A DNA stretch of 64,000 nt from Heterodontus francisci (lineage: Eukaryota). The notes below the pieces were generated by a model that was not told where the DNA came from, did not search any database, and saw only the letters and a program-made list of their open reading frames with translations. Of the stretch, positions 6,504 to 60,223 are shown in pieces. Each line of letters begins with the position of its first letter. Within the stretch, counting starts at the first letter, position 1. The position numbers were made by a program, and so were the translations under genes. The stretch is taken from assembly GCF_036365525.1 (NCBI RefSeq), contig NC_090399.1, positions 26,608,529 through 26,672,528 on the forward strand, read 5' to 3'.

Positions 6504-6530
6504 CGCGACTGTTAACTATAAAAAATGAAG
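6504..6530 (+). CDS. 27-nt micro-exon (class B), ARLLTIKNE
   Basis: T-tract gcaacag|CGCGACTGTTAACTATAAAAAATGAAG|gtaaag; open in phase 1, two TAA in phase 0. The aacag acceptor is shared with 3109 and 60197. Confidence 0.75.
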
Positions 6531-9174: not shown

Positions 9175-9195
9175 AAGATTCCATTCGTCAGAAAT
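9175..9195 (+). CDS. Candidate 21-nt (one heptad) micro-exon, EDSIRQK, ends in T
   Basis: gactgtttttacattag|AAGATTCCATTCGTCAGAAAT|gtaact; same AAAT|gtaac end as 3941-3967. Confidence 0.45.
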
Positions 9196-23865: not shown

Positions 23866-24494
23866 TGCTGGACTCCCTTCCTAGCAGTACTGTTGTTGTA
23901 CCTACACCCCAAGGACTGCAGCAGTTCAAGCAGGCAGCTCACTACCATCTTCCCAAGGGTAATTAGGCAGAGGCAATAAATCTTGGCCTAGCGAGTGACG
24001 CTCACATCACACGAATGAATAAAAAATCCTTTCACCACATAGAAAATACTAATTTGATTTGCATAATGTGAAAAATTAAGATGAAAGAAAAATAAGCCCC
24101 ACTGCATCGAAATTACCCTTAATGCGTTGTCGATTCAACTCTAACATTGGAGTCAGTGGCTCTGCTGTCATCTCTGCAATGGTGTAGAGTGTGGGAGGCT
24201 GGAATGAAAAGCTTCAATGCTCCAATCATTGTCCATCTGTTTCCACTGGTCACTTTAGGCCGCAGTGGAGTGTTTTATAAATCTTGGAGTAAGTTTGGGG
24301 ACATCAGATCTTGGATAAGCTGATAATGGCAGGTATGCAAAGCAGATACAGATCGTATATCACCATTTTTATTTGTGGTGATTCATGTTCTACTGTATAG
24401 ACTTACAATTGGTGCTTTTGTCAATATTATACTCTATTATTGCAAATCAAATATAGCAATAATCACAACTGTTAACCTTTTATTATTTTGTCAG

Positions 24495-24521
24495 AAACAA
24501 AAGAAACCTATAAGAAATACG
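24495..24521 (+). CDS. 27-nt micro-exon (class D), ETKETYKKY
   Basis: tttattattttgtcag|AAACAAAAGAAACCTATAAGAAATACG|gtgagc; paralog with homologous flanks at 44826. Confidence 0.8.
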
Positions 24522-24648
24522 GTGAGCAGTAATAGCGCATTTTTACCATCAAACTTTAGACCTTTGTTTAAATTAATGAATCTGTTTTAGTCTTGGGTAA
24601 TAGGAAAATACACAATTCCAAATATCTGCTTCTGTCTTTCAATTACAG

Positions 24649-24680
24649 AACTACACAACAAAACTACAGCTCTAAAATGA
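24649..24680 (+). CDS. Stop-carrying exon (class E), ELHNKTTALK*; candidate alternative last coding exon
   Basis: tctgtctttcaattacag|AACTACACAACAAAACTACAGCTCTAAAATGA; 127-nt intron after the D exon; the paralog at 44986 has its stop at the same offset. Confidence 0.55.
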
Positions 24681-24939
24681 CTGTGATATGAACATGACAA
24701 AATATCCTCTGCCTGCTTTCTTAACACAGGTTTAAACCCATTTAGTAGACCAAGGAGGGGAATTGCAATGCTAAATATTTCTGGGCTCGTATTGCAATTA
24801 GTAAATTCTTTCCTGATGTATTTTTGTTCTCAGTCCCTGTCGGTGACTACCTGGGGGTGAAATACAATTTCAGTGGACTTGAACGCCGTCCAAATGGACG
24901 GATGGCCTCAGCAGACACCGTCTGATATTACAACGGAGT

Positions 24940-25922
24940 GGCACCTGGCAACGCCGTGCATGCGCAGAACGATCGTGGACGTCATCAGTCCATGCGAACA
25001 TTTGCCAGCGTGCATCCGCATGCTGATTTTACCATGCAATGACGTCCTCAACTCTCAATATCTGCGATTGCCACCTCCATTCCTCCGAACAGTGCCGCGC
25101 TCCCTCCTGTCATCCCCGCTTCAATCGTCACTTTCATTTTCTCGCTCCCGACTATTCAGCACTCCATGCCGCCGCGCCACTTCCCCACCACCACCAGCCC
25201 CCCAACCCCCACCCGACCCATCCATCCCTGCCCCACCTCCAGCGTCTGCTCACTTCCCGTCTCGCCGGTTCCCCACCACCCCCTGACCCCACCGCAGCTG
25301 CTCACTCCCGACCGTGCGATGCCTTCGCACAGTTATACACTCCCGCCCTCGCTGCTTTCCCCGCACCTGGGTCGAATGCTCCCTGCCGCACCACCCGAAG
25401 AAGCAGCGGGGATTGGGTGACGGGAAGCCTGTGGCCCAAGTGTGACAGGCCGAAACGGCTGCGAGTGTCCGACAGCAGGGAAGCGGCGATGCCTGGAGCA
25501 AGCGACCGGGTTTGGGGGGGGGGGGGTGGCTGTGTGTGGGAGGTGACGAAGTGAGGTGCGAGTCACGAAAGTAGCAGGTCGGGGAGTCAGCAGCCGAGGC
25601 GAGGAAGCGGCGACGGCGGGAGCGAATGGCTGAGTGAAGGCAGTGACCAGGCGGTGAGTGAACAGCAAGCAGATGAGCGCGGGAGGTAGAGGCGTGGAGA
25701 AGCACATGACAGGAGAGAGTGGAGTACTGTTGGGGCCGGGATGGAGGTGGCCATCTCAACCATTGATTGGGTTTGAGTTTAGATTTTTTGGGACAAATTG
25801 AGCAGCACCATCTTTATTATTGGCAGCTGCCTGACGCATCACCGAGAGTGAGTTTCAGTGCTTGAGGCTACATTTGGGCATGTGCCAGTACTGCGCCATC
25901 AAGTGATTGCGTTGTCAGCCAA
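24940..25922. mobile_element. GC-rich foldback (imperfect palindrome) non-autonomous element
   Basis: Left arm gccacctccattcctccgaacagtgccgcgctccctcctgtcat (~25070) versus reverse complement of right arm gccacctccatcccggccccaacagtactccactctctcctgtcat (~25705-25751). C-rich left half, G-rich right half. Confidence 0.7.
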
Positions 25923-26039
25923 TGCAGCCTTCTGGGAATGTAAAGGTAAAGAAGAATTAGCATGGGAAGGCTCGTCAATTGGACACCACTCATTTTGCAC
26001 ACCGGTCAAAACTGACTTTTACCCATGCCACTTTCTCTC

Positions 26040-28600
26040 ATAGAATCATAGAAGGTTTAAGGCTTAGAAAGAGGTTACTTGACATGTCTGTGCAGACCGA
26101 AAAACAATCCACCTATTCTAATCCCACTTTACAGCATTTGGTCCATAGCCCTGCAGTTTATGGCACTTGTGGTGCATATCCAGACTCCTTTTGAATGAGT
26201 TGAGGGTTTCTGCCTCAACTACCCTTTCAGGCAGTGAGTTCCAGACCGCCATCACCCTCTGGGGGAAAAATGTTTTCCTCATCTCCACTCACATTTTCAT
26301 ACCAATCACTTTAATCTATGCACCCACGTCACTGCCCTCTCTGCTAAGGTGACTGGACTCTTCACCTCCACTCAATCCAGGTCCCTCATAATTGTTCGCA
26401 TTTCAATCAGGTCCCTCCCCCCCTACTCCCCCCCCACCCCACCCCCCGCACCCCGCTCAGCCTTCTCTGTTCCAAGGAGAACAACCCCAGCCGATCCAAT
26501 CTTTTCGCATACCAGCACTTTTGCAGTCCTGGCAACAGCCTCATAAATCTCCTCTGTACCCTCTCTAATGCAATTACATCCTTTCTGTAACGAGGTGACA
26601 AGAACTTCACACTGTACTCAAGTGGTGGCCTAACCAATGTGTTATACAGGTCCAGCATAACCACTCTGCTCGTATATACTATATCTCGGCTAATAAAGGA
26701 CAGGATTACATATGCCTTCTTAACCACCTTATCGACCTCTCCTGCTACCTTCAAGGTTTTGTGCACATTCAATCCGGGTCCCTCACTTCCTCTACACTTC
26801 TCAGTATTTTCCCATTAATGTGTATTCCTTTTCCTTGTTTGAACTCCCCAAAATGCATCACTTCACACTTCTCCAAGTTTAATTCCATTTGCCACTTCTC
26901 TGACCAGACCATCACTACCCTCCTGCAGACTCCAGCTACCCTCCTCGCTATCTACCACACGGCCAATCTTTATGTCATCTGCAAACTTCTTGATCATGCC
27001 CTCTACATTTACTTTCAGACCATTAATGTATGCTGCAAAAATCAGGGACCCAGTACTGAGCCCTGGAGAACGCCACTGCAAACAGTCCTCCAGTCGCTAA
27101 AACAGCTGTCAACCCTTTGTTTCCAGCCACTGAGCCAATTTTGTATCCACTTTGCTGTTTTTCCCTAGATCCGGTGGGATTTTATTTTTTTAGCCAGTCT
27201 GCCATTGGAACCTTGTCAAAAGCCTTGCTAAAAATCTATGTAGACCACATCAACTGCACTACCCTCATTTATCTTCCTTGTTACTTCTTCAAAAAATTCG
27301 ATCAAGTTGGTCAAACAAGATCTTCCCTTAGCAAATCCATGCTGACTATCCTTGATTAACCTGTACCTTTGGTTGGGACAGTTTATCCTGTCTCTCAGAA
27401 TAGATTCCAATAACTTGCCCACTACTGAGCTTAGACTGGTCTTTAATTATTTGTATATCCTTTGCCCCCTTTTTAAACAGAGTTACAATGTTGGCACTCC
27501 TCCGGCATCAACCTATATACAGTGAAGAATGTAAAATGATGGTCAGACCCTCTGCTACTTCCTTTCTTGTTTCCTTTAACAGCCTAGGATACATTTCATC
27601 TGGCTTTGGTGTTTTATCAACTTTCAAGAATGCTAATCCCATTAATGCTTCCTCTCTCCCTATGTTTATCGCATCCAATACTTCACATATTTTCTCCTTA
27701 ATTAAAATATCTGCATCGTCCCCCTACTTGTGAAAACAGACACAAAGTATTCATTAAGAATCATACCAATATCTTCCACTCCTATGCATAGGTTACCTTT
27801 TTGTCTTTTATGGACCCTACTCTCTCCTTCGTTATTCTCTTACTCTTTATGTATTGATAAAACATCTTTGGGTTCACCTTGATTTTGCTTGTAAATGTTC
27901 TTTCATGGCCTCTCTTTGCTTTCCTAATTTCCTTTTTGATTTCACCCCTCCACGTTCTATACTCCTCTCGGCTTTCTGCAGTCTTGTGTTATTGGTGTCA
28001 GACATAAGCTTTCCTTTTCTGCCCTATCTTACCCTGTAGGCACCTTGACATCCATGGGTCTTCAGATTTGGCTGTCTCACCGTTTTTCTTTGTGGGAACA
28101 TGTTTACTCTGAACCCCTTGAATCTCCCCTTTGAATGCCTACTACTGTTCTGACACTGATCTTCAAGTAGCTGTTTCCAGTCCATCTTTGCCAGATCACT
28201 CCTCAGTTTAGTAAAACTGGCCTTGCCCCAATTGAGAACTGTAACTCCTGTTCTATCTTTGTACTTTTTCATAATTATGTTAAAAGTGACTGAATTATGA
28301 TCACTACCACCAAAGTGCACCCCCCCCCCCACCCCGCCCCACTGCCACTTCTTTCATCTGCCCATCTTCATTTCCTAAAACTACGTCTAAAGCTGCACCC
28401 TCTCTTGTTGGAGTTGCTGCATACTGGGTGAAAATGTTCTCGTGAATGCACCTCAAGAATTCTGTTCCTTCAATTCTTTTCACGCTAAAACTATCCCAGT
28501 TAATACTGGGGTCGTTATAATCCCCCATAGTACTGCCCTATTGTTCTTGCACTCTGAGATTTTCCTACAGGTCTGCTCATCTGCCTCCTTCTGACTACTG
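26040..28600 (-). mobile_element. CR1 LINE ORF2 (endonuclease end to 3' UTR), disrupted
   Basis: MGDYNDPSINW...LDVVLGNE, SQHGFAKGRSCLTNLIEFFEEVT, KFADDIKIG, LVRPPLEYSV; tail catagaatcatagaa at 26040. Confidence 0.92.
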
Positions 28601-29329
28601 CGGGGCGAGTGAATAGATGTTACATTATTGTTCTCTCACGGTTAATTGCAATTGAAGGTACTTTCCATCGTGTTTTAGATTGATAGATATAAGTTCTAAT
28701 TGCAAAGGCAGTAGTGACAGCGAAACTGTGAACGTTTGCGTTCATTACTCCTCTGATATTGACAGCAAATTCTGTAGTATGTGCACGCGCAGTGAAATCC
28801 AGAAATCCAGAAGTTGCTGTCAGTGAAACTTGCATTTGCAAAGGGTATGCGCTTGATGTCCTTGTCCAATGCAATGAAAATAAAAATCATGGAACTGCCA
28901 AGAGCTTGTCATTTTACACTATTTGTATCGCTGTAAAAAAAAACTTGATAAATCTATACCTTGTTAAATGATGTGTAATTAGATCTTTAACGGCGCACTA
29001 AATTTCTAATTACCGTTGCAAACCCTTCTGAGCCTGATAAACTAATCTCATATTTGTGGAATGTCAAATTTCTCCGTTATGAGTTAAAACAAAATCTTAA
29101 TTTATGTTTAACGTAACATGTTGTTTATGACAGTTCATCATCTGCATTAATCCCATGAGTATGTGACAACAATTTTTTTCCACCAATGTGAGGTTACCGA
29201 GGACTGTTGGGGAGTTTTAAAAGCATTGGCTGCAGGAAGAAAAGTAAAAAAAAAAAGCAGCGCTAAGTAGAAATGAGACAAGCAGATGGCAGGAAAATTA
29301 AAAACATTCCCTAATTTCAGGCACCAGAT

Positions 29330-31378
29330 TGAGGAAAATAGCAGAAATGATGAAGGAGGGAGTAAATTTTATCTACATCAATATCTATAGTGTAAATGAT
29401 ATAATTGGTGAGTTGTAGGCACTAATTACTATGCGGGATTATTATGTGTTGCAATAAAAGAGCCATGGTTCAAACAAGGCCTGAAATGCATTAATTTTCC
29501 TGATTGCAAAGTATTCAGGAGGAGAACGGGTGGCAGTATTATTTATGGATGATGTTACAGTTCTAAGTAGGCAAGAGTTACTAGACAGAATCTATTTTGC
29601 ATAAGTTACATTGTTTATATACATATAGAGAGAGAGAGCTCCAAACAATGTTTAGGATATAAATGAACAACATTGCCAGCAAATTTCAAAGGCGTGTTAC
29701 AAAAGTACAGCAATAATAGAAGAAGAAGCCAGCATGCTGGAATATCCTAGGGAATCTGATACTGAATCAAGGACATAAGCTCACCAAAATAAACAAGGCA
29801 AAATATCAGTAACGAAGAAAATAAAGTCATGGAAGAGTGACAAATGCCCAAGATAAGATAGTTGTCATCTCAAGGTTTTAAAGGAAGTATATAAGAACAC
29901 GACAGATGCCCTAATCTAATGTTCCAAAGTTGTCTTGATTTGTAAAGCATTTCTTCAAATTGGAAAAATTGTGTATGCCACTCCATTACTTAAGAAAGCT
30001 GAGGATGGGAAACCAGGGAATTATGTACCAGTGAGCCGCACATCTCATGTTTGACAGTTACTCGAGTTTATAATTAGAATAACTGAACACCTTGAAATTT
30101 TTCACTTCATCAGAAAGGTCTCGCCTGGGTTTGTAAAGGGTAGCTTTTGCCCGACTAAACTGACTGAATATTTTGCAGAGGTGACTTAAAAAGTGGGCGG
30201 GGTAATATCTATGGATGTTATTTATATTGACAGCCAGAAGGTTTGCTAATATTTCTCATAACAGACTGTTAGCTAAAGTTGTAGTCCATGCAATTGAAGG
30301 AGAATGTTAATCAGGTTAGGAAATTGGCTGAGCTGCAGGATCGAGAGAGAGATTAAGAATAAGGGGCACGTACTCTAATTGGCAGGATGCCACTAGTGCT
30401 GCCCTGCAAGTATCAATATTGGTCATCGACTGCTGTTCGTATTCATTAAAGACTTAACTGGTGGTTTACAAAGCTACGCTTCAAAATACGCTGAAGTCGC
30501 AAAGATAAGCAGCATGGTCAGCAGTGTCAATGAAAGAATAAATTACAAGCAGATGTTGATTGAGTTAGTGACAGGGCAACACTGTGGCAAATGGATTTCA
30601 ATATAGGCTAATGTCAGGTGATCCAGTTTGAACACAAAAAGGAAAGACTGGGGAATTTATAAATGGCAGAAAGCTAGAGACAAGAGTGGTAGAAAGAGCT
30701 TTCGAGGTCCAGGTACATAGATCATGAAAACGTCATGAACCGTACAGGAAATCATCGTAAAGGCTAGTGGAACGCTGGCCTTTCTATCCAAAGGAATAGA
30801 GTAGAAGCTGGTAGAATCTAGCTTCAGCTATACAAAAATCCTGTTTCGACCGCACCTGCAAAAGTGTCAGAAGTTCAATTGTCGGCATTGCATTTTAAGC
30901 AGGTTAAATCGGCTTTGGAGGAAGTGCAGCGTAGATTTGACAGAATGATGTCTGGAGTCCAAGTGTTAACTTACCGTTACACAAACCACCATTTTATTCC
31001 CGGGAATTTAAAAGGTAAAACGGCGATTCGATCGATGTTTTCAAAATATTGTGAACATAAAGAGTAGATAAAACATTTTCTGGTCTTTGAGGAGTCTAGG
31101 ACGGCAGGGCATAGTCTTAAAGTTAGAGGAGTGAAATTAGGAAACCCTGCTCTGCATAATAGTGGCAGAAGTTTGGAATTCTCTTCTGCAAATTGATACT
31201 TATGCTCCATCATTTGTTAACTTTCTATGTGAGATTGATAGATTTTTTGTTATGCAAAGGTTGAAGCGATATGGAGAAAGGGGGGGTGGGGTATGTAGTC
31301 GCACATTATGTACGAGCACATTGAATGGTGGAACTGGCTCCACTGGCTAAATGGTCGACTCCTATTCCTATGTTCCTA
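29330..31378 (+). mobile_element. Old, heavily decayed CR1 LINE
   Basis: Residual RT-region similarity (ccagggaattatgtaccagtgagcc, gggtttgtaaagggtag, ALEEVQRRFDRMMSG) and 3' tail actcctattcctatgttccta. Confidence 0.75.
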
Positions 31379-32979
31379 AAATGTAATGCTATGTGTAGCG
31401 AAGGAATTTTGTCTCGACCAATATGACTCCAGTCTAACAAAGACGGGACCAGTGTTGGAAAGGCCTCTGGGAAGTGAAATAGGGCAAGTGGAATGTGCTA
31501 CAGTAGGAGACCAGTTGACGGACAAGACTAAACAGTATTCAACTCAAATTATGGAAAGCGACCAAAAAACATTGAAGCTAAAAATCCTCATCTGGAGAAG
31601 TAATTATGGAAAGAGGCTAGAAAATACCGAAAATAAAAAGTCTACTGCACAAGAACTAATTTCCATGATTTAAGAAGGAAACGGCAATTCCAGGGAAAAG
31701 CAGAAAGGAGAAATAGAAGGTAGTTCAGGTACAAAATAGGAATTTTCCTTTGACATGAAACAGTCGACTATCCAAAGCTAATGCACCCTAGATAACAAAA
31801 GGAATACAAGTTGAAATACAACAGAAAACGGAACAAATGACAGGAGGATTCAATTAATAACCAGGATGTGGAAAGTGCAGGAAAGATTTGATAAACGTTA
31901 AGACGGGAAAAAGAATAGCATACACAATTAAATTGAACCCTAAACCGTTTTAGAGGCATACAAAGTATAAGCAGTTAACTAGGGACAAAACACAGGGCCG
32001 TTTAAGAACCGAGACGGATTTCTTTACGTAGACGCAGAACACACAGCAAAAGCTTTATATTGTTATGATTCCCGAGGACCATCAACAAACGAAAATAATC
32101 GAATCCCACCAGCTGATCGAAATTTAGGAATCCAAATACCAAACTGAAAAGATTTCGCTTTTATAAATTTTACGTCAACACTCAAACCAAAATTAATATA
32201 CATTATACATGAACTAACAGTTAAGTCACGATCGATGTTTATATCTGCACGCTAATTAGCAGATGCATCATGGAACATTATTACAGTTTGCTGGTCAGTC
32301 TCATATCGCAAAGAAACCATAATCTTTCTCAGGTAGCTTTCAAGACGCGACATCCAGGATGTGCATATGGAAATACTGATATCCAGTCCTTAGCGAGCAA
32401 TACAATCTCTTTAACAGTTCGGTTTTTACTATTACCATCGTGATGCTGTGGCGCCCCGATAACTTTCAGTCAGAGAAGCTACTCTTAGTTTTCAGAGATC
32501 ATCTACCAAGAAACAGGTTCCAATTCAAAGAGTCTGTCCTTTTAAAACCTTTTAAAAGCTCCCAGCTTTTTTCCAGTTCAGTAGTTCTGGAAGACTACCC
32601 TAGAACCAACCAAGATCAAACTCTGAAAAAAATGTTATTTTTTATCAGTCAGAAGACTGTTTGTTTACCTAACCTGGATGTAACTTGGAAATCTCCAGTT
32701 TCCAATGAGGGACAATCGTTCAATCACAAACGCAAATAGCTGAATTGTATTAGCGCGCCGCACATTGCGGCAGCACCGCTGAGCCCCCACAATATTTCGC
32801 ACTGGGGGTCAGTTAAACGGAGGGGGCGAAGCGGCCGCCCCCGATGACGTCCCCGGCAATGGCGTCGGGCACCACCGCGCAGGCGCCGGAGCCATTCTTC
32901 AAGGGCTTCGGACTCATTAAAATGTTCAAAGGGAAAGAATGCTGAAAAATAACGATTGACATTTCCTCTCATGTTCAAT

Positions 32980-33282
32980 TCCCTCCCTAGGGGACACAGA
33001 TTAAAGGTTTTGGGCAAGAGATGCATGGAGACTTTGTTGAAGAACTTTTATACGTAGTGAGGGGAATGACCTGGAACATGCTGCTCATGAGGGCAATGGA
33101 AGCAGAGACAATCAATGATTTCAAAAGAAAGCTGGATGATTACTTGAAGCAAATGAATTTGCAGGGATCTAGGAATTGCGCAGCGGACTGGGGCTGACTG
33201 CATTGCTCCACAGAGAGCTGTCATGGATTCTATGGACCGAATGGGCTCCTTCAATGCTATAGATTATTCTATGACTATATGA
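32980..33282 (+). mobile_element. CR1 LINE 3' end
   Basis: ctaggggacacagattaaaggttttgggcaagag...gaccgaatgggctccttc...attctatgactatatga. Confidence 0.75.
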
Positions 33283-33831
33283 CAAGTTGTGCAGAACTCA
33301 GTTTACAGATGAAGACACCATAATAATATTAGTACTGCGAATCTCGCCTCAAAAAGGAAGATGGTTTATGCTAAAAGAGGAGAGAGAGCTTATGGACAGG
33401 ATAGATATTGATGGAGATGTATTAAAAATATTGGTACTTAAGTTTGTTAAGTCACCTGAACCGAATAAAATGCCGCCTGAATTCCAGAAACAAGCAGCAA
33501 AAGAAAAAGTAACAGAGGCATTGGTCGCAAGCTTTCAATACTTCACTTTGGAGTAGAAGAAGTAAATGACTTGCTGCAGATTTCCCAGCTAACGGGCTGT
33601 TCCTGTAGCCACAGTTTAAAGTGGTTGTCCAGTTAAATTGCACGTCCAAGGATATAAATGGTGGGGGATTCAACGATTAAAATGGCAGTGAATGTGAAGG
33701 GTAGATGACGATATTCTCCTGTTGGAGTTGGTCATTGTCTGGCAGTTGTGGGGCTTGAATGTTAATTGCCACTTATCATGCCAAGCCTGAATGCGAGACA
33801 GACTTTGCTGCGTGCATGCAAGGACTACTTA

Positions 33832-35815
33832 ATAGAGTCACAGAGTAATAGAGTCATACAGCAGAGCAGCAGGCCCTTATGTCCATCGTGCCTGTGCCGG
33901 CCATCAAGCACCTAACTATTCTAATCCCATTGTCCAGCATTTGACCCATAGCCTTGTATGCTATGGCGTTTCAAGTGCTCATCTAAATACTTCTTAAATG
34001 TTGTGAGGGTTCCTGCCTCTACCGCCTCTTCAGGCAGTGCTTTCCAGATTCCAACCACCCTCTGGGTGAAAATGTTTTTCCTCAAATACCCTCCAAACCT
34101 CCTGCCCCTTACCTTAAATCAATGCCCCCTCGTTATTGATGCTCCCGCTAAGAGAAAAGTTTCTTCCTATCTAACCTATAAATGCCCCTCATAATTTTGT
34201 ATACCTCATTCATGTCCCCCCTCAGTCTTCTCTGCTCTAAGGAAAGCAACCCTCGCCTTTTCAGTCTCTCTTCATAGCTGAAACGCTCCAGCCCAGGCAA
34301 TATCCTGGTGAATCTCCTCTCCACCCTCTCCAGTGCAATCACATCCTTCCTATATTGTGGAGCCCAGAACAGTACACAGTACTCCAGCTGTGGCCTAACT
34401 AGTGTTTTATACAGCTCCATCATAACCTCCCTGCTCTTATATTCTATGCCTCGGCTAATAAAGGCAAGTATCCCATATGCCTTCCTAACCACCTTATCTA
34501 CCTGTGCTGCTGCCTTCAGTGATCTATGGTCAAGGACACCAAGATCCCTCTGACCTTCTGTAATTCCTAGGGTCCATCCATTGTATATTCCCTTGCCTTG
34601 TTAGTCCTCCCAAAATGCATCACCTCACACTTTTCAGGATTAAATTCCATTTGCCACTGTTCCACCCATTCTACCAGCCCATCTATATCGTCCTGTAAAC
34701 TAAAGCTTTCCTCCTCCCTACTTACAACAGCACCAATTTTGATGTCATCTGCGAACTTACTGATCATACCTCCTATATTCACGTCTAAATCATTAATATA
34801 CACTACAAACAGCAATGGTCCCAGCACCGATCCCTGTGGTACACCACTGGTGGCAGGCTTCCACTCGCAAAAACAACCCTCGACCATCACCTTCTGCCTC
34901 CTGCCACTAAGCCAATTTTGGATCCACTTTGCCAAATTACCCTGGATCCCATGGGCTCTTACCTTCTTAACCAATCTCCCATGTGGGACCTTATCAAAAG
35001 CCTTGCTGAAGTCCATGTAGACTACAGCAACTGCTTTAGCCTCAGCTACACATCTAGTCACCTCCTCGAAAAATTCAATCACGTCAGTTAGACACGATCT
35101 TCCCCTGACAAAGCCATGCTGACTATCCCTGATTACTCCTTGCCTCTGCAATTGGAGATCAATTCTCTCCCTCAGATCTTTCCAATATTTTCACAACCAC
35201 TGATATTAGACTCACTGGCCTGTAATTACATGGTTTATCCCTGCAACCCTTCTTGAATAATGGCACCACATTCGCAGTGCTCCAGTCCTCTGGTACCTGT
35301 TCTGTGGCCAGAGACGATTTGAAAGTTTGTGTCAGAGCCCCTGCTATCTCCTCTCTTGCCTCATATAACAGCCTGGGATACATCTCATCTGGGCCAGTGG
35401 ATTTATCCACTTTTAAGCCCGCTCAAACAAATAACACTTCCTTCCTTTCAATGCTAATATATTCAAGTATTTCACAGTCCCTCTCCCTGGTCTCTTCACC
35501 TACACAGTCCTTCTCCATTGTGAGCACAAATGCAAAGTAATCATTTAAAACCTCAACTACGTCCTCCGTCTCCACATGCAGATTGCCACTTTGTTCCCTA
35601 ATGGGCTTCACTCTTTCCCTGGTTATCCTTTTTCCCTTAATATACTCATAAAAAACCTTAGGATTTTCCTTTATCTTGTCCGCCAGTGTTTGTTCATGTC
35701 CCCTCTTCGCTCTCTTTTGTTTAGTAACATCCCCCCCACGCCCCCTACACATTCTGTACTCCTTTAGTGCCTCCGTTGTTTTCAGCGTTGCGAATCTGCC
35801 ATAAGTTTCCTTCAT
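33832..35815 (-). mobile_element. Relatively young CR1 LINE (linker-RT-3' UTR) nested in the second CR1-like family
   Basis: ORF 34567-35151 has intact SQHGFVRGRSCLT, YMDFSKAFDKVPHGRL, GVPQGSVLGPLLF, KFADDIKIG; ORF 34148-34492 is the C-terminus. Confidence 0.95.
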
Positions 35816-36420
35816 TTCCTCAGAAGTTACGAATCGGAATGAATAACGTACAGTCAGCAGCAAACATCTTCATTTCTGATTTTAGTATGCAGTATTGATT
35901 GAGCAGATGAAAATGGCCGAGCCTCGGACAGCACCCTGAGGAACTCCTATAGCAATGCCCCCAGGGCTGAGATGATCGGTTTTCAACAACCACACCCAAC
36001 TTAATTTGTGCTACGTATGATCCTAGCCAGTGGAGAATTTCCCCCGTGATTCCTATCATCTTCAATTTCCTTATGTTACAATCGGTCAAATGCTGCCTTG
36101 CAGTCACTCTCACTAGGACAGTCACTCTCACAACACATCTGGCATTCAGTTATTTTGTGTATGTTTGCAGCAAGAATGTAATGACGCTTGGAGCAAAATG
36201 GTATTGGTCTCAGTAGCAACAGTGAGCAGATTACTTCTGAATGAGTGCCAGTTGATAGTACGGTCGATTTTGTCGCTTTGCTGATGTTTGAGAGTAGACG
36301 GATGGGCTGGTCATTGGTGGGATTTGATTCGTTCTTGTGCACAGGATAAACCTTCGCAACTTTTCATATTGTGGAGTAAATCCCAGTGTCCTAGCTGCAC
36401 TGGACCAGCTTGGCTAAGGG
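35816..36420 (-). mobile_element. Second CR1-like family RT fragment (continues at ~33620-33830)
   Basis: KSEMKMFAADCT; KNESNPTNDQPIRLLSNISK. Confidence 0.8.
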
Positions 36421-36434
36421 GCACCTAGTTCTTG

Positions 36435-36652
36435 AATAAAAATAAGAAATGCTGGAATCACTCAGCAGGTCTGGCAGCATCTGTGAAAAGAGAAGCAGAG
36501 TTAACGTTTCGGGTCAGTGACCCTTCTTCAGAATCACTGACCCGAAACGTTAACTCTGCTTCTCTTTTCACAGATGCTGCCAGACCTGCTGAGTGATTCC
36601 AGCATTTCTTGTTTTTATTTCAGATTTCCAGCATCCGCAGTATTTTGCTTTT
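36435..36652. mobile_element. Young palindromic Penelope-like insertion with 13-bp target-site duplication
   Basis: 86-bp inverted arms 36435-36520 and 36534-36619 (one mismatch seen), 13-nt spacer; direct repeat acctagttcttga at 36423-36435 and 36653-36665. Confidence 0.85.
36495..36533 (-). ncRNA. Minimal type-I hammerhead ribozyme-like motif (Penelope-associated)
   Basis: Minus strand reads ttCTGAAGA-a-GGGTC-act-GACCC-GAAA-cgtta-actc: CUGANGA and GAAA cores, 5-bp stem II, palindromic AACGTT minimal stem III. The 5' strand of stem I is truncated by the inversion. Confidence 0.6.
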
Positions 36653-37318
36653 ACCTAGTTCTTGAGTTCGATTCTTTAGCAGTACAGCTGAATTGCGCCT
36701 GGTTTACACTAATGGTTATTTCAATTAATATTCAAATGAGTTGAACCATGCTTATGTACCCCTCCAACTAACATTTTCTATTGGTATAAGATCAGTGCAA
36801 CTTACCACAGTAAAATCTATAAGTCATGACAACTGTGCTGGAAAGGATTTGTTTCAGTCACTATGTGAAAAATATGAGTTATTTACTGCAAAGTGTTTGA
36901 GGCAGTTTCTGCAGTTACTGCACCTTGTGCCATGATACCGTTAGGAAAGCTAAACGAGTAAAGTTTTGAATGTTGAACGCTTAAGTGAAAATTTCAAACA
37001 TGTACTCAGAAATATAGCTCATTGAAAAAGAAACATTTATGGGGCTATTGGGAACTAGAAAGGGTATAAGACTAATTAGAGATCTCTGTCAAGGAGGAAG
37101 CACAGGAACTATGGGCCAACTGACTTCCTTCTGTGCTCTAATACTCTATCATTCACAGCGTTCTTTCTGAAACAAGTGCAAAAAAAGCATATTTTGGAAA
37201 AATCTGCACGAGCTCGTATGCAGTAGAATGATGAAGTTAACAAATACAAAAACATACACTTTAAAGACACTGCAGTATTCGCTTAGCTATATATATATTT
37301 TTACTTTCTATCTTGCAG

Positions 37319-37345
37319 AACAACAACTGCAAGAAAGGGAAACAG
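37319..37345 (+). CDS. 27-nt micro-exon (class F), EQQLQERET
   Basis: ttactttctatcttgcag|AACAACAACTGCAAGAAAGGGAAACAG|gtaacc; paralog with similar flank at 48850. Confidence 0.8.
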
Positions 37346-37959
37346 GTAACCAGAAATCCCCGGTACAAGTATGAATGCACAAGCTTACTGCATGACTGAG
37401 ACAAGAAGCAACGTGTTTCACTTTCAGTAAGTTTCTGACTGGGCTGGATCAGTCTTGTTTCTGTATGTAGAATAAGTCGTAGATTGATTCTACCTCTGAA
37501 ACACTACAACCGAATAAATTCACCTGTGACGTTTATTTAATCCAATCCCTGAACAATCAGCCTCTCTTTCCCCTACTAGCAATCTGATACAATGCAAAAG
37601 ATGCACTCTTCTGAATAAAAGAGCTGGTTATATCTGGAATCAGTTGGCTACAGACTCCCGCACGACAGAGTTAACATGGTATTAAGTTATATATGTTTCA
37701 AAGTAGTTAGGTACATAATGTTAACACAAGTAAGAAGAATTTTAAATTTTACTGATACTATTACACAGATGGTACTGTTTCAGTTGTACATTATGCACCT
37801 TACCCGATTTTGGCGATTTCAGAGTATGCCCACATTGGGTCGTTAGCGTTATACTGGCTTAAAATAATCGTATTATGTAACCAAATGTTGCACTATGAGC
37901 TACATTCATAGGATACGAAAACTGCTAGACCTAGAGTTGGCTTTAGGCAGTTGAGACCA

Positions 37960-38310
37960 TGGCACTAATTGACAAGGGACCACAGAGGAGGGAACAGCAA
38001 ACAGTAGAAATACAATTGTGACAGGAAATTCCATCGCTGGGAGAACAGACGGTCATTTCTGTAACGGTCATCGCACGGTGTATCGCCTCCCTAGTGCCAG
38101 GGTAAAGGACATCATGAAGAGGAGGCAGAATATTCAAGAAGCAGAAGGGAGTGAGTCAGAAGTTGTGGCACATGTCAGTATCAACGACCTGGAGAGGCCA
38201 GGTATTGACGGTCTATTTTCAGCTTTTCAGGAGCAAGGAAGAAATTTAAATGAGTAGAACCACGAAGGTAGTAGTCTCTGGCTAACTCCCAGTGTTGCAC
38301 ACATTGTTGG
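37960..38310 (+). mobile_element. CR1 ORF1 SGNH-esterase fragment
   Basis: TGNSIAGRTDGHFC...LPSARVKDI...EVVAHVSINDL. Confidence 0.8.
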
Positions 38311-38744
38311 AACTGGTGGTGGAGAATGAGAGGTTAAAGTTAATGGGCCCCTGGAAACAGATTAGGAGGAGGGGATGCCATAGAATTGCGACGAGAGGTC
38401 ATAGGTGGAGGGCCCATCGCCTTCCCGTCGCTCCACAACTTAGTCTGTGGCGGGATTGGCCTATTATTCGCTACTTAAGGGCCTATTCCTTCCACGGTGG
38501 GGCGGTTGGCCTCCACCACGCGAGGAGGCGGCCCAATAAAACGAAATGGCATCCCTGCGGGCTTGAGGGGGTGGCGTTGCATTCTATAGCCATGAAGCCC
38601 CCCCCTCCACCACCCGCCAGCAAACAAGCCACCTCCTGCATTAACCACAAATCCCCCCCCCCCGCACCCTACAAAACTCAACGCCCACCCTCAATCCCCA
38701 CATCACCAGAGACTGTGACAGGGAACTTAAGCAAACACCAGGGA

Positions 38745-39640
38745 ATCACAGAATTGTTACAGTGCAGAAGAAGGCCGTTCGACCCATCGACTCTGTACCA
38801 GCTCTAAAAATGAGCAAATTACCTATTGCCATTTGCCTGCTTTCTCCCTGTAACCCTTCACATTTTTCCTTTTCAGATAACATTCTAATGCCTTTTGAAT
38901 GCTTCAATTTAACTTGCCTCCACCACATTCTCAGGCAGTGCATTCCAGACCATAATCACTCGTTGCATGAAAAACAAATTCCTCTTGTTGCTTTTGTTTT
39001 TTTGATCAATTGTTTTAAATCTATGCCCTCTCGTTTTCGATCCTTTCACGAGTGGAAACCGTTTCTTACTACCTTTTCTGTTCAGAGCCCTCATGATTTT
39101 GAATACCTCAATAAAATCTCCTCAGCCTTCGTTTCTCCAGGGAAAACAGTCCTAAACTTTTTCAATCTAGCTTTATAACTGAAGTTCGTCACACCTGGAA
39201 CCATTCTCGTGCATCTTTTCTATTTTCTCTCTATGATCTTTCTACCAAAATGAATCACATCACCTTTATCTTCATTGAACTTCATCTGCCACTTGTCTGT
39301 CCATTTCACCAACTAGTCGATGTCCTTTTGAAGTTCTACACTAGCCCCATCACAGTTCACAATACTTCCAGTTTCGTATGCCCCGCTAACTTTGAAATTG
39401 TGCCCAGTATACCAGAGTCTATATCATTAATATATAGATGAGGAAGAACAAGGGTCTCAACATTGGCTCCTGGGGAACTCCACTTCAAACCATCCTCTAG
39501 CACGAAGAACATACATTAACTACTACTCTTCGTTTCTTGTCACTCAGCCAATTTCGTATCCATGTTGCTACTGTCCAGTTTTTCATGATCTATAATATTG
39601 CTCACAAGTCTGTTATGTGGCAGTGCACCAAACTCCTTTT
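38745..39640 (-). mobile_element. CR1 LINE 3' fragment
   Basis: FPLVKGSKTRGHRFK...FFMQRVIMVWNALPE. Confidence 0.8.
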
Positions 39641-39754
39641 GGCGTTTCAGAACATTATTTTTTGAAAATGTCAGCTATATGAAAATAATACAGAAGCAAA
39701 AACTCGTTTCGTCTCATATATGCTAAATGAACAATATTCAATGTTTTGTTGCAG

Positions 39755-39790
39755 AACTAAAAACATTGAAAAGTCTTCTATTTGATGACG
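39755..39790 (+). CDS. 36-nt micro-exon (class A), ELKTLKSLLFDD
   Basis: atgttttgttgcag|AACTAAAAACATTGAAAAGTCTTCTATTTGATGACG|gtcaga; open in phase 1, TAA and TGA in phase 0; donor is moderate. Confidence 0.7.
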
Positions 39791-40578
39791 GTCAGAACAA
39801 CATTATGCTATGCATATTCGTTTAAGAGCATTATCTGCGGGGAATATGATAAATTGGTGAAACAAATATATTTTATATATTTATGTTTATGCAACAATTA
39901 ATGCGTTTCAATATTCAGTGCAATAGAAGGTTTACATGGATGCATCTAGGTTTTATTTTGGTATTACCGTAGTTTGTTGCATGCAGCATGGACCAGGCAG
40001 TTGAAGCAATCAATTTTGTTTCGGTTTCTGTGAATCAGTTAGGCCAGAGTCTTGATGAACCTACGTTTTCTTAAATGGGGAAATGCTAGATTATACTTTC
40101 CTCGATATATATTCTTCGTTTTTAATTTGAAACAAACCATATTCTATAGCAAGGAAGATCTATATTCCAGCCCTGCAGCGGCGTTTTCAACTGTCAAGTT
40201 GTTTTGTGTTGGTTGTTGGACCAAGCTGCACTGAAAGCCCTCGTTGACGTCCACTGAGCCATCCCAGCATTCGCAAACTGATTCTTGGTCAGTGCCATCA
40301 TAAACTAGACCAGCAGACTTAAATACCTTATTTAGGAGCTGATCCGCAGCTCATGGTCATTTTCAAAATAAACAAAATAACATTTTGGAAAATGTAAATC
40401 AAATTGAGGCAATTAAATGCTTTAGTGCAGTTTTGGCTTTGATTGCATTTTGAAAATTTTGAATCTGGAAATCGGGAAATTGCACTGTGGCTGATGCCTC
40501 ACTTCACACGTTGGCATCAGATTTCGACTGTCAAAATTTTAATATACCTGTTAGTCTCTTTAAAATAACTGGATAAAT

Positions 40579-42810
40579 CTTCTTTGGCCTCCTTATCTCG
40601 AGAGACAATGGGAAAGCGCCTGGACGTGGTCAGTGGTGTGTGGAGCAGCGCCTGGAGTGGCCATAAAGGCCATTTCTAGAGTGACCGGCTCTTCCACAGG
40701 TGCTGCAGATAAAATTGGTTGTCGGGGCTGTTACACAGTTGGCTCTCCCCTTGCGCTTCTGTCGTTTTTCCTGCCAACTGCTAAGTCTCTTCGACTTGCC
40801 TCACTTTAGCTCCGCCTTTATGGCTGCCCGCCAGCTCTGGCGAACGCTGACAACTGACTCCCACGACTTGTGATCAATGTCACAGGACTTCATGTCGCGT
40901 TTGCAGATGTCTTTAAAGCGGAGACATGGACGGCCGGCGGGTCTGATACCAGTGGCGAGCTCGCTGTACAATGTGTCCTTGGGGATCCTGCCATCTTCCA
41001 TGTGGCTCACATGGCCAAGCCATCTCAAGCGCCGCTGACTCAGTAGGGTGTATAAGCTGGGGATGTTGGCCACCTCGAGGATTCTGCGTTGGAGATACGG
41101 TCCTGCCACCTGATGCCAAGGATTCTCTGGAGGCAGCAAACGTGGAATGAATTGAGACATCGCTCTTGGCTGGCATACGTTGCCCAGGCCTCGCTGCCAA
41201 AGAGCAAGATACTGAGGACACAGGCTTGATACACTCGGACTTTTGTGTTCCGTGTCAGTGCCCCATTTTCCCATGCTCTCTTGGCCATTCTGGACATAGC
41301 AGTGGAAGCCTTTCCCATGTGCTTGTTGATTTCTGCATCTAGAGATAGGTTACTGGTGATAGTTGAGTCAAGGTATGTGAACTCTTGAACCACTTCCAGA
41401 GCGTGGTCGCCAATATTGATGGATGGAGCATTTCTGATGTCCTATCCCATGATGTTCGTTTTCTTGAGGCTGATGGTTAGGCCAAGTTCGTTGCAGGCAG
41501 CCGCAGACCTGTCGATGAGACTCTGCAGACACTTTTCAGTGTGAGATGTTAAAGCAGCATCGTCAGCAAAGAGGAGTTCCCTGATGAGTGCTTTCCGTAC
41601 TTTGGACTTCGCTCTTAGACGGGCAAGGTTGAACAACCTGCCCCCTGATCTTGTGTGGAGGAAAATTCCTTCTTCTGAAGACTTGAACACATGTGAGAGC
41701 AGCAGGGAGAAAAAAATCCCAAGAAGTGTGGGTGCAAGAACACAGCCCTGTTTCACGCCACTCAGGATAGGAAATGGGTCTGATGAGTTGCCGCGATGTT
41801 GAATTGTGCCTTTCATATTGTCATGGAATGAGGTGATGATACTTAGTAGCTTTGGTGGACATCCAATCTTTTCTAGTAGTCTGAAGAGACCATGTCTCTT
41901 GACGAGGTCAAAGGCTTTGGGGAGATCAAAGCGATGTAGAGGGGCTCTGTTGTTCGCAGCATTTCTCCTGTATCTGACGAAGGGAGAACAGCATGTCAAC
42001 GGTCGATCTCTCAGCATGAAAGCCACTCTGCGCCTCAGGGTAGACGTGCTCGGCCAGCTTCTGGAGCCTGTTTAAAGCGACTCGAGCAAAGACTTTCCCC
42101 ACTATGCTGAGCAGGGAGATTCCACGTACGTTGTTGCAGTCACCGTGGTCACCTTTGTTTTTATAGAGGGTGATGATATTGGCATCGCGCATGTCCTGAG
42201 GTACTGCTCCCTCGTCCCAGCACAGGCAAAGCTGTTCATGTAGTGCTGAGAGTATAGCAGGCGTGGCACTCTTGATTATTTCAGGGGTAATGCCGTCCTT
42301 CCCAGGGGCTTTTCCGCTGGCTAGAGAATCACTGGCCCCACTTAGATCCGATTTGGTTGGCTGTACGTCCAGCTCATCCATGAATGGTAGAGGCTGGGCT
42401 GCATTGAGGGCAGTCTCCGTGACAACATTCTCCCTTGAGTACAGTTCTAGGTAGTGCTCAACCCAGCGGTCCATTTGCCTGCGTTGGTCAGTGATTATGT
42501 CCCCTGATTACGATTTGAGGGGGTAATCTTCTTGATGTTTGGCCCAAAAGCTCTCTTAATGCCATCATACATTCCTCTGATGTTTCTGGTGTCTGAGGCC
42601 AGCTGAATATGACAGCATAGATGTTGCCAGTAGCCATTTGCGCAGTGCCTGGCTGTTCTTTGTTCAGTGCTTCTGGCTGCTTTAAGTGCTACGGATGTTA
42701 ACTCACTGGGGGCTTTCTTGTAGTTCAACAGTGCAATGCGCTTAGCGGCTATGACAGGTTCCAGCTCTTCAATATGAGATTGAAACCAGTCTGCATTCCT
42801 CTTCGCACGA
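40579..42810 (-). mobile_element. RTE-clade LINE, 5'-truncated, frameshifted RT
   Basis: GKAPGKDGITPEIIK, RGISLLSIVGKVFARV, GVKQGCVLAPTL, RELLFADDAAL, TKVRVYQACVLSILLFGSEAW, RRLRWLGHV..MEDGRIPK..LYSEL: RTE/BovB-type signatures. Confidence 0.92.
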
Positions 42811-44237
42811 ATAAATCACTCCCCTAAAATTGAAATAGTATTCTGCAGTGTGCTTATCTTCTTTTCTTTTGCAGAAATTATTTTTTGGCATAACATTGTT
42901 GGGATCCTCTTATGGTTTGTGATATTAATCTTCTGGATTCGTTGTAGAGGAGGGATACTGGTTTAACGCAGAGGTTAAGATATTTTAGTTGCACAGGTAG
43001 GCCCAAAGAGTTGCGTCTCGAAACTTTAGAGAAGAGTACACCTGGGTGATATGAACTAGTTTTCTGAAATAGTGAAGAGACTAGAATATATTGATTTGGC
43101 GAAACATTTCATTCAAATAGGTCGGGATGGGCCAGAGATCATGTTTACAAGTTCAATACTATCAAAAATAAATTATATCTAAGGTAGAGAATAGTAGACC
43201 AGCGGAACAGACAAATGTTGGTTCGCTAAATTCCATCAAGTGCGAGCGAAAACTGTTCTAATATGGGGCGGTGATCTGCTCGAAAAGGTGTCACGTCTAT
43301 GATATCTCGTAATGTTAAGGTAATGTGATATCCTCGACCAATTTCGATCGCTTCAAGCATAATTTTCCAATTTATTTTCCCGTATTTGGCCTGTTTTTTC
43401 TTCCCAAAAAAACTTGTTCCCCTTTCCTCGGACATTATGTGGCTACCGTAGGAGGAGAATGCGTGTATTGTAATCCAAGAGCAGGACACTGGATGGACAG
43501 GTAGGTTTTTAACTGTCTTCAATTTTCATATAATGTTATATACTTTTATCTGTCTTAACAGAAGGAAACGACTATTATGTAAAATTGTGGAAATGTTAGT
43601 TCAGTTTAGACTGAATTCCCAATGCACAACTGAACGCGTATTCATTCATACAGCGACAAAAGTCGTACATGTTTTTTGGTTATCATCAACATGTCTTATG
43701 AGATGCAAAGTTTATTTTTACTCCATTGAAATTAGTTGATTTACCATTAAGGGAAAACGAATTTGTAAACAAATATTATTGCAAATGATTCGTTTGTTGA
43801 CACACTCAATGTCTCAAACAATCGTCATACAGGGAAATAAATAATACTACCTCGTTTATCCTCTGGATACAGAGTTCACCAATCGTTGTTCGATTTGTTC
43901 TCGCCTCTCCCTTTCTCCACAATTTATGAAAGAAAGTTTAAGATATTTGTCATTCTCCAGTCACGCAATGCCTTTGATGATTTATTATGGTGTGGCAAGA
44001 GTAATTACGAGCAAGTTCCCCAGAAATGATGTTCATCCTGGCAAAGCACCAGATGTCCAACTTGTTTATCATCTTGGCGGAATTTTACGGTCTTCACCAA
44101 AATGAACTTTTGCATTCTTTCTAGATATGATGCCAGATGCATCCTACGAATGATCAATTCTCTATCTTTTCTGCAGCAAAAATCGAAACGCTATTTGTAA
44201 GTCAAAAGAAAGAAAAAAACTTTAACCATAAAGAATC

Positions 44238-44525
44238 CTCCCACAACACCTACCAATCCCACGACCTCTGTCACTTAGAAGGACAAGGGCAGCGGATGAA
44301 TGGGAACAATGCCAGCTGCAATTTCCCCTCCAAGCCAAACATCAACTTGACTTGAACTATATCATCCTTTCTTCACTGTCGCTGCGTCAAAACCTGAAAC
44401 GTGATGACTGACAGCATTGTGGACATACCTACACAAGACAGATGGTAGCTGTTCAAGAAAGGGCTCACCACCGCCTTCCCATGCTTATCAAGGCCAATTA
44501 GCAATGTGCAACGCTCACGTCCTAC
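44238..44525 (+). mobile_element. 3' end of the second CR1-like family
   Basis: tagaaggacaagggcagcggatg...ttcccctccaagcca...gttcaagaaagggctcaccaccgcctt; homologous to 21900-21995 and 23870-24027. Confidence 0.75.
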
Positions 44526-44825
44526 ACATTATATGCACATATACAGATACACAAAAATCGGGTATGTTATGGAATAAATGAAATGACAGCTAGGTCAAAG
44601 GCTGATGGAGTAGTTATGGGAAATTTGAATTTTTTAAAGCAAAAAACAGTAATGAAAGCTAATGACCCAGATAAGCATTACACCATTGCGAATTTTGATG
44701 TGTGGCGATTGATTTTCCTTGCATCCAGCGAAATCAGTTGCATTCAGTTTTGGCAAAACAGTACTTTCGCTTGAAATTGTAATATAACAATAACCACAGC
44801 TGTTATTATGTTATTATTTGGTTAG

Positions 44826-44852
44826 ATAAGAAAGTAACTTGTGAGAAATATG
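44826..44852 (+). CDS. 27-nt micro-exon (class D), DKKVTCEKY
   Basis: ttattatttggttag|ATAAGAAAGTAACTTGTGAGAAATATG|gtgagc; paralog of 24495. Confidence 0.75.
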
Positions 44853-44985
44853 GTGAGCAACAAAATTCAGCTCCATTTACATCAGCAACTTACTGAAACT
44901 GTGCTCAAATTACTGAATCTGTTATAATGATTGTCAGTGGGAAATTTATAATTTCAAACACCACTATCTGTCTTTCATATTCTAG

Positions 44986-45017
44986 AACTAATCACCGAAC
45001 GCAAAGTCTTAAAATGA
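44986..45017 (+). CDS. Stop-carrying exon (class E), ELITERKVLK*; candidate alternative last coding exon
   Basis: tctgtctttcatattctag|AACTAATCACCGAACGCAAAGTCTTAAAATGA; 133-nt intron after the D exon. Confidence 0.55.
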
Positions 45018-45069
45018 CTTTTTCCGACACTGGAATAACAATAGAGTGTCATTAAATTCCTCTCGCCAT

Positions 45070-48849: not shown

Positions 48850-48876
48850 AGAAACAACTGAAAGAAAAAGAAGCAG
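48850..48876 (+). CDS. 27-nt micro-exon (class F), EKQLKEKEA
   Basis: tactttgtgctttgcag|AGAAACAACTGAAAGAAAAAGAAGCAG|gtaaac; open in phase 1, TGA in phase 0. Confidence 0.8.
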
Positions 48877-55182: not shown

Positions 55183-55218
55183 AAATGGAAAAACTGAGAA
55201 AAGCTGTGCACGATATGG
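55183..55218 (+). CDS. 36-nt micro-exon (class A), EMEKLRKAVHDM
   Basis: ttgtgtttcacctttcag|AAATGGAAAAACTGAGAAAAGCTGTGCACGATATGG|gtaaga; open in phase 1, TGA in phase 0. The acceptor resembles that of 1478. Confidence 0.82.
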
Positions 55219-60196: not shown

Positions 60197-60223
60197 AAAC
60201 GAAACTACTCCAGAAAGAGTCAG
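60197..60223 (+). CDS. 27-nt micro-exon (class B), ETKLLQKES
   Basis: actgtttttatttttcataacag|AAACGAAACTACTCCAGAAAGAGTCAG|gtaaac; acceptor and KES end match 3109. Confidence 0.8.

Follow-up and report, generated by a model that had tools for sequence, protein, structure and literature searches.

Paired stop-carrying segments in a shark micro-exon array are probably broken 36-nt exons duplicated after breaking

In a 64,000-nt stretch of the Heterodontus francisci genome (NC_090399.1, positions 26,608,529 to 26,672,528, forward strand; hereafter the window, in which positions are counted from 1), two short exons, D1 and D2, are each followed at close range by a segment, E1 or E2, with a splice acceptor and an in-frame stop, and intact exons continue beyond both. 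The question raised by this locus is whether E1 and E2 terminate transcripts, as a built-in switch of tail length or as the ends of separate gene copies, or are exons that have died.

The window most likely belongs to a single gene with a coiled-coil rod that would be encoded in alternating 27-nt and 36-nt exons. These exons are of phase 1, and a pair encodes 9 + 12 aa, equal to three heptads. Thirteen exons, each of 27 or 36 nt and none of 21 nt, were counted as intact, and when joined they give 129 aa in frame without a stop. With the E segments counted as 36-nt slots, the alternation runs without exception from D1 to the exon at 60197. Left outside the intact set were the 36-nt candidates at 5871 and 57750, both outside the top 22 of the class model, and 13 plus-strand candidates of other lengths, including one at 8706. 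The intact exons are the following:

1478..1513, + strand: intact 36-nt exon, Asp at codon 11
3109..3135, + strand: intact 27-nt exon
3275..3301, + strand: intact 27-nt exon in a probable E slot, 139 nt behind 3135
4848..4874, + strand: intact 27-nt exon
6264..6299, + strand: intact 36-nt exon, Asp at codon 11
6504..6530, + strand: intact 27-nt exon
24495..24521, + strand: D1, intact 27-nt exon (ETKETYKKY) with AG/GT, 127 nt before E1
37319..37345, + strand: F1, intact 27-nt exon, likely splice partner of D1
39755..39790, + strand: intact 36-nt exon, Asp at codon 11, weak donor GTCAGA
44826..44852, + strand: D2, intact 27-nt exon (DKKVTCEKY) with AG/GT, 133 nt before E2
48850..48876, + strand: F2, intact 27-nt exon, paralog of F1 and likely splice partner of D2
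55183..55218, + strand: intact 36-nt exon, Asp at codon 11
60197..60223, + strand: intact 27-nt exon, D-related

The exon at 3275 probably arose by in-frame shortening of a 36-nt-class exon (z of about 4 against exon 1478; its protein-level fit was matched by 24 of 2017 controls). Among the 125 frames of at least 85 aa in the window, neither an Ig, B30.2 or other host-gene domain nor any other non-transposon domain exceeded the Pfam cut-off. A protein search with stacked exon peptides as queries yielded 747 candidates, none at E ≤ 10, and a profile search from exon peptides gave two matches only, both to repetitive unrelated proteins. A nucleotide look-up with 24400-24800 returned no match. 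No 27/36-nt exon array in cartilaginous fish was found in the literature searched. The candidate at 8706, tried as a relic of F, was unsupported (313 to 613 of 2017).

The two segments at issue are:

24649..24685, + strand: E1, putative decayed 36-nt-class exon, now 37 nt, acceptor intact, with an extra base in its A-run that would bring TGA in frame
44986..45022, + strand: E2, paralog of E1 with the common extra base and stop, acceptor weaker, expected donor place empty

Measurement placed the E acceptors at 24649 and 44986, beyond D-E introns of 127 and 133 nt, and the frames read ELHNKTTALK (24649-24680) and ELITERKVLK (44986-45017), each closed by a TGA at the identical offset, exon nt 30-32 (24678-24680 and 45015-45017). 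These details agree with the sequence-only reading, as do the continuing intact exons, the paralogy of the two segments, and the G at nt 21 of both followed by CT (E1) or TC (E2) and not by GT. At the former donor position E1 reads ATATGA. GC-rich repeat DNA lies behind both D-E copies. Acceptors are commonly followed by a stop within 11 codons (752 of 2017 minus-strand yAG sites). The D-E blocks are 64% identical over 423 nt (expect value 3e-32), a match beyond chance that reflects paralogy, and the common stop is one inherited event, not two.

The former length class of E was examined with a register test, in which a hydrophobic heptad column was followed across the intact exons from D1 to 60197 and 15 lengths were tried for the E slot. 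A 12-residue slot scored 8/9 with intact exons only and 12/13 when the first nine residues of E were included, the latter equalled in none of 20000 within-chain shuffles; leucines at E residues 2 and 9 fall in register. Among the 15 lengths, 8/9 was reached only with 12 or 5 residues, the 5-residue slot fitting as well, and an empty slot scored 5/10 (intact exons only). All four intact 36-nt exons carry an Asp codon, GAY, at nt 30-32 (codon 11), and both E exons carry GAC at nt 31-33, one base late behind the A-run, making TGA.

It had been proposed that E1 and E2 are former 21-nt heptad exons, and both the G at nt 21 and the 21-nt exons of chicken BG tails (PMC5938342) favour this origin. With 7 residues in the slot, though, the leucine register is lost (5/10 with intact exons only, 6/12 with E residues); nothing donor-like stands behind nt 21 (CTCTAA, TCTTAA), the array has no intact 21-nt exon, and the 36-class match of Leu codon 9 and of GAC at nt 31-33 would go unexplained. 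We give this origin hardly any credence. The G at nt 21 simply opens codon 8. Descent from a 27-nt exon, on the pattern of 3275, was also dropped, as a 9-residue slot scored 6/10 and 8/13 and the 27-nt model did not fit.

A weight matrix was built from the four 36-nt exons, with one indel freely placed and 2017 minus-strand sites as controls. For E1 it called an insertion of one base, at nt 29, with 7 controls as good when the donor was included and 42 on the body only. E2 did not fit the nucleotide model (371 of 2017 on the body only, 702 with donor). At the protein level, with one A-run base omitted, E1 and E2 fit the 36 class (33 and 26 of 2017) and not the 27 class (1781 and 994 of 2017). 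In an unanchored scan with the class models the score of E1 (11.1) fell short of the best minus-strand controls (14.0), and E2 and a segment at 60372 were both absent from the top 22. A motif test combining hydrophobic residues 2 and 9 with the Asp codon was matched by 6 of 2017 controls, a test designed post hoc after E and not independent of it.

Taken on the sequence evidence, E1 and E2 are probably broken leftovers of 36-nt exons that were duplicated together after breaking, and D-to-F splicing would skip both. E would originally have been a 36-nt exon of the rod; in the ancestor of both copies its A-run would have gained one A, shifting the class-typical Asp codon by one base and bringing TGA in frame, its donor would have decayed, and the D-E-F block would then have been duplicated. 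Both copies would thus carry the stop because one insertion preceded that duplication, and the earlier view of E as former internal exons damaged before duplication is supported to this extent. A donor-less E would not be defined as an exon, so that D would join F in frame (27 + 27 nt), with 12 residues fewer and the heptad register shifted. We infer this order of events, the skipping of E and the expression of the gene. At position 6 D1 has Y and D2 has C, and both end in Y at position 9. These two positions fall on a and d of the register of F downstream only if E is left out; in the other 27-nt-class exons a hydrophobe stands at position 9 in 0/6 and at position 6 in 2/6. These positions are suggestive of E skipping, with the qualification that D1 and D2 share one ancestor. 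Counted against the dead-exon reading are the survival of the acceptor, the frame to the stop and the stop itself in both E copies, the similarity of the E acceptor regions, the misfit of E2 to the nucleotide model, the low rank of E in the unanchored scan, and a D-E intron short enough for intron definition.

Exon decay appears to extend beyond E1 and E2. At least five further segments of the array are, as judged from their bases and positions, relic exons:

60372..60408, + strand: putative dead 36-nt-class exon, 37 nt, both splice sites gone, 148 nt behind 60223
17021..17055, + strand: putative dead 36-nt-class exon, 35 nt, donor reading GG (score 21.8; best minus-strand control 14.0)
3941..3967, + strand: putative relic 27-nt exon with AG/GT, last base T (score 15.3; best control 12.7)
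9175..9195, + strand: probable relic, 21 nt, ending in T (z about 5 to 60197)
16142..16168, + strand: possible D-like relic, EKEALCLKY, both splice sites damaged, weak (104 of 9832 for D1, 418 of 9832 for D2)

The segment at 60372 matched the 36-class model better than any of the 2017 controls on the body only and was equalled by 5 of 2017 with the donor; by its apparent position it occupies the slot equivalent to E, with a separate lesion. The death of this slot by another lesion at 60372 and its apparent shortening at 3275 count in favour of E as a dead exon, as do the other relics. The segment at 17021 precedes D1 as the exon at 39755 precedes D2. Spliced to 4848, the relic at 3941 would read TAG, and that at 9175 would read TAA if spliced to D1 or F1. 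A third D-E pair at 16142-16280 was rejected, its E-like half (16252) being unsupported (379 to 1063 of 2017) and its D-like half weakly supported.

Such numbers of relics, set against 13 intact exons, and the intron-like divergence of D1 from D2 (19/27 nt identical) would also be expected if the stretch, or the D-E-F blocks as wholes, were a decaying pseudogene segment with no functional splice choice. This seems quite improbable, given that the 13 exons join stop-free into their 129-aa frame, that none of the 8 AG/GT positions in the two D and two F exons has been lost (about 0.05 under neutrality), and that the changes between F1 and F2 are conservative.

E1 and E2 are identical at 21 of 32 nt (66%); in five intron stretches the copies agree at 57-70%, and behind the stop at 70%. 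Nine of their 11 differences fall at codon positions 1-2, a split that alone is not significant (P 0.23), and 3 of the first 9 residues are identical, with no protein-level conservation. The D copies are 70% and the F copies 78% identical, so a constraint test on E is low in power. These comparisons make it likely that E1 and E2 are diverging as introns do, with leaky use at a low level a possible exception. The acceptor region is identical at 19 of 23 positions (P about 0.10), and joint retention of acceptor, frame to the stop and stop in both copies has an estimated neutral chance of about 0.07, a figure that concerns the very features by which E was picked.

With an intact acceptor and a stop and without a donor, E1 and E2 have the anatomy of alternative terminal exons, and the broken 36-nt exon may instead have been co-opted. 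The D donor would then pair with the E acceptor by intron definition across 127-133 nt, leading either to an intronic poly(A) end, and so to short rods without the downstream domain, or, through a cryptic donor, to a transcript destroyed by nonsense-mediated decay. We consider this unlikely, while granting it some weight. In its favour, acceptor, frame and stop were kept twice, whereas the slot at 60372 lost its acceptor, and the E1 acceptor is strong (4.4 in a simple weight matrix, with 25 of 4237 control AG sites as good; E2 scored 2.0). An ATTAAA lies at 45051, 33 nt after the E2 stop, and an AGTAAA 119 nt after that of E1; spliced from a strong donor at 45184, E2 would be a stop-carrying exon of 198 nt. 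The leucines at E residues 2 and 9 would let a D-E product end the zipper cleanly. These signals are not shared, however. No poly(A) hexamer common to both copies was found, against a background of 1.5 per kb, and E1 has no equivalent of the ATTAAA, its first AATAAA being 2 kb off. Nor was a usable donor after the stop, conserved between the copies as for a poison exon, found: that at 45184 sits in a GC-rich stretch, and over the 700 nt from the E1 acceptor nothing corresponds to it, no donor there scoring above 1; E1 itself offers a GT at nt 35, which is poor (score -2.9). The next F acceptors (5.6 and 3.9) outscore those of E, and between D1 and F1 another 6 sites, between D2 and F2 another 9, equal or exceed the E acceptor. 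Large indels after the stop, the repeat DNA behind both copies and the lack of protein-level conservation also stand against co-option.

No RNA run was listed as matching 43300-45320, and in three runs (presumed RNA, one sample) next to none of its 213 words were present. Over 24300-40100 the same runs were repeat-dominated and gave repeat-derived contigs; the bin with D1 and E1 had mean depths of 0, 0 and 0.35, and among the 15 of 129 joints listed none lay at D1, E1 or F1, a result that weighs neither for nor against use of E.

It is doubtful, though conceivable from the same bases, that a zipper exon of 36 nt, once frameshifted, was put to new use as a stop cassette and that duplication installed two regulated exit points. 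If this were true, the acceptor would have been kept since the short D-E intron permits intron-defined splicing, one giant micro-exon gene would make short, medium and full-length coiled-coil rods, and the short rods could be decoys for a terminal recognition domain.

An acceptor and a stop without a donor are equally the anatomy of a true last exon, and a CpG-rich stretch follows E1 at 24931-25930, which would suit the suggestion that E1 and E2 are the 3' ends of separate tandem partial gene copies. The evidence does not support that suggestion: F belongs to the duplicated D-E-F unit and the leucine register continues across E. The CpG-rich stretch proved to be repeat DNA, present again at 1-444, and no such stretch was found between E2 and F2; the 125 frames gave no Ig, B30.2 or other non-transposon domain above the Pfam cut-off, and the poly(A) signal is not conserved. 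We regard this explanation as highly improbable.

Several known systems bear comparison. Chicken BG (B-G) genes of the butyrophilin family combine cytoplasmic heptad exons with intron read-through (PMC5938342, PMC4046983); as in the present array, a coiled coil is encoded in an expanding and contracting set of tiny exons, and for BG itself truncation by early stops is reported. In contrast, BG exons are of 21 nt (a few of 18 or 24) and this array alternates 27 and 36 nt; BG truncation is intron retention (PMC5938342) and E is a donor-less exon with its own acceptor; and BG genes have upstream Ig-V and transmembrane exons, with no Ig family seen among the 125 frames of this window, beyond which the gene extends. 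Splice-site mutations mostly cause exon skipping or use of cryptic sites, and intron definition can splice short introns with no downstream donor needed (PMC2234086). E resembles the skipped dead exons that follow splice-site loss in having lost its donor, in being short and in that in-frame skipping is possible, but its lesion is fixed and duplicated and not a disease allele, and its upstream intron suits intron definition, so that leaky acceptor use is possible. TRIM5 forms lacking PRYSPRY/B30.2 are reported to be dominant negative when overexpressed (PMC3264904), which offers a model for a D-E product, a coiled coil without a recognition domain, if the gene ends in B30.2; this window shows neither RING nor B-box nor B30.2. 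Heptad number varies in cartilaginous-fish butyrophilins (PMC12841164), in the main text of which the word 'exon' is absent.

If E1 and E2 are dead exons, they would represent ordinary exon birth and death, useful chiefly for annotating an unusual gene. The ancestral rod would then have been one continuous leucine zipper, and one slot, always behind a short intron, would have been altered in three ways (E, 60372 and 3275), every loss at such a slot breaking the register of the rod. Should the E acceptors be in use, the array would instead hold a length switch, built in and duplicated, that derives from a dead exon.

A splice-site scan returned nine phase-1 candidate exons of 27 nt and six of 36 nt on the plus strand, compared with one and zero, respectively, on the minus strand. 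The intact set comprises 13 exons, the 36-nt candidates at 5871 and 57750 having been left out because they lay outside the class model's top 22. Joined, these 13 are in frame without a stop and encode 129 aa.

Exons and stop-carrying segments of the array
1478, 6264, 39755 and 55183, plus strand: intact 36-nt exons (n = 4)
3109, 3275, 4848, 6504, 24495 (D1), 37319 (F1), 44826 (D2), 48850 (F2) and 60197, plus strand: intact 27-nt exons (n = 9)
24649-24680 (E1) and 44986-45017 (E2): acceptor followed by an in-frame TGA, behind D1 and D2, respectively

DNA across the window is of vertebrate type with numerous decayed LINE fragments, and reverse-transcriptase families alone passed the Pfam cut-off among its 125 frames of at least 85 aa. 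RVT_1 matches occur in 10 of these 125 frames, and decayed LINE reverse-transcriptase fragments fill introns in several places between 13900 and 48800. Directly after E1 (24937-25766) lies a repeat rich in GC and CpG that contains inverted arms; it has a copy at the window start (1-444) and a related piece after E2 (45101-45173). No relative emerged when stacked exon peptides were searched against proteins, and such an array is undescribed in the literature searched, whose coverage took in few subscription papers. The closest design is that of chicken BG tails, for which excerpts of two reports describe 21-nt exons and truncation via intron retention (PMC5938342, PMC4046983), but that exon size is unmatched here.

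The acceptor-plus-stop segments that the sequence-only reading had described behind the D exons are borne out. Identity between the two units is 64% over 423 nt for the D-E blocks and 64% over 252 nt for the F blocks; both being paralogous, D-E-F was copied as one unit, and the identical stop in E1 and E2 therefore represents a single inherited event. E1 and E2 are a real feature, and the best explanation is an ordinary one: they are probably duplicated dead 36-nt exons.

One 27-nt and one 36-nt exon together encode 9 + 12 residues, or three heptads, and the 27/36 alternation is unbroken from D1 to 60197 when E is counted as a 36-nt slot. Across trial slot lengths of 0-14 residues, and with the intact exons alone counted, hydrophobic residues filled 8/9 positions of the best heptad column when the slot was 12 or 5 residues long and 5/10 when it was 0 or 7. 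Inclusion of E's first nine residues gave 12/13 for a 12-residue slot (reached by none of 20000 shuffles), 8/13 for nine and 6/12 for seven. The low scores of the seven-residue slot in both comparisons count against the earlier proposal that E derives from 21-nt exons, which now appears highly improbable. All four intact 36-nt exons carry GAY (Asp) at nt 30-32, while E1 and E2 have GAC at nt 31-33 preceded by a run of four A; thus one extra A converts Asn-Asp to Lys-stop. When a weight matrix was built from these four exons, it introduced a 1-nt insertion at nt 29 of E1 of its own accord (7/2017 minus-strand control sites scored as well), and after correction of this insertion E1 ends in a terminal G followed by ATATGA, plausibly a decayed donor. 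At the protein level the two E exons fit the 36-nt class (33/2017 and 26/2017) and neither fits the 27-nt class. Two results count against this assignment: E2 has no nucleotide-level fit to the 36-nt class (371/2017), and E1 alone does not surpass the highest-scoring controls when the scan is left unanchored. The argument for the putative 36-nt origin is carried by the leucine register and the Asp codon.

The array contains several dead exons, of which E1 and E2 are two. Four times a short intron precedes this slot, and each time the slot is altered: at E1 and E2 (one common lesion), at 60372 and at 3275, with moderate homology between short-intron pairs (3-4.5 SD). The 36-nt-class segment at 60372-60408, 148 nt behind the exon at 60197, exceeds the class length by one base, inserted elsewhere than in E (0/2017), and has lost both acceptor and donor; it is a dead exon of the E slot with a lesion independent of E's. 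The intact 27-nt exon at 3275-3301, behind a 139-nt intron, resembles the 36-nt class and looks like a member minus three codons. A further dead 36-nt-class exon (17021-17055) is one base short with GG as its donor, and scores above all minus-strand controls. Relic exons at 3941-3967 and 9175-9195 retain AG and GT and have T as last base. Most intact exons begin with AA or AG (10/13), so an exon-final T gives a junction stop, and a G-to-T change at an exon end makes a latent poison exon. The segment at 16142-16168, whose acceptor and donor each lack one base and which has an acceptor 83 nt on at 16252, is perhaps a third, weakly supported D copy or relic. That this stretch, or the D-E-F blocks as a whole, is a decaying segment we regard as improbable.

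Co-option of E as a stop cassette, which we hold to be rather unlikely, draws on the survival of acceptor, frame and stop in both copies, for which the joint neutral chance is ~0.07, uncorrected for the selection of the finding on those same features. E1 and E2 are identical at 21/32 nt, compared with 57-70% in five intron stretches; 9/11 differences fall on codon positions 1-2 and protein identity is 3/9 residues. The D and F exons are themselves only 70% and 78% identical between copies, so this comparison has low power. Downstream of the stop the copies are still alignable, with large indels, and no poly(A) hexamer common to both was found there. That E1 and E2 are the ends of separate genes is very unlikely.

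The acceptor of the next F scores higher than that of E in both units. A search of sequencing runs listed none that carried RNA of the array, and contigs from three runs aligned to it consisted mostly of repeats. According to an excerpt of PMC2234086, splice-site mutations lead mainly to exon skipping or cryptic-site use, and recognition across the intron is possible for short introns. For dead 36-nt exons, D would likely be joined directly to F, in frame and with the heptad register shifted at the junction. The E acceptor may nevertheless be used leakily or under regulation, because the D-E intron is just 127-133 nt; if the gene ends in B30.2, a D-to-E product would be like the truncated TRIM5 without PRYSPRY described in part of PMC3264904. 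D1 and D2 have Tyr or Cys at position 6 and Tyr at position 9, which match the a and d positions in the F and 36-nt exons that come next solely in the E-skipped form. This residue pattern is suggestive of long-standing E skipping but represents a single ancestral event; the D exons may have been retuned after the exon loss.
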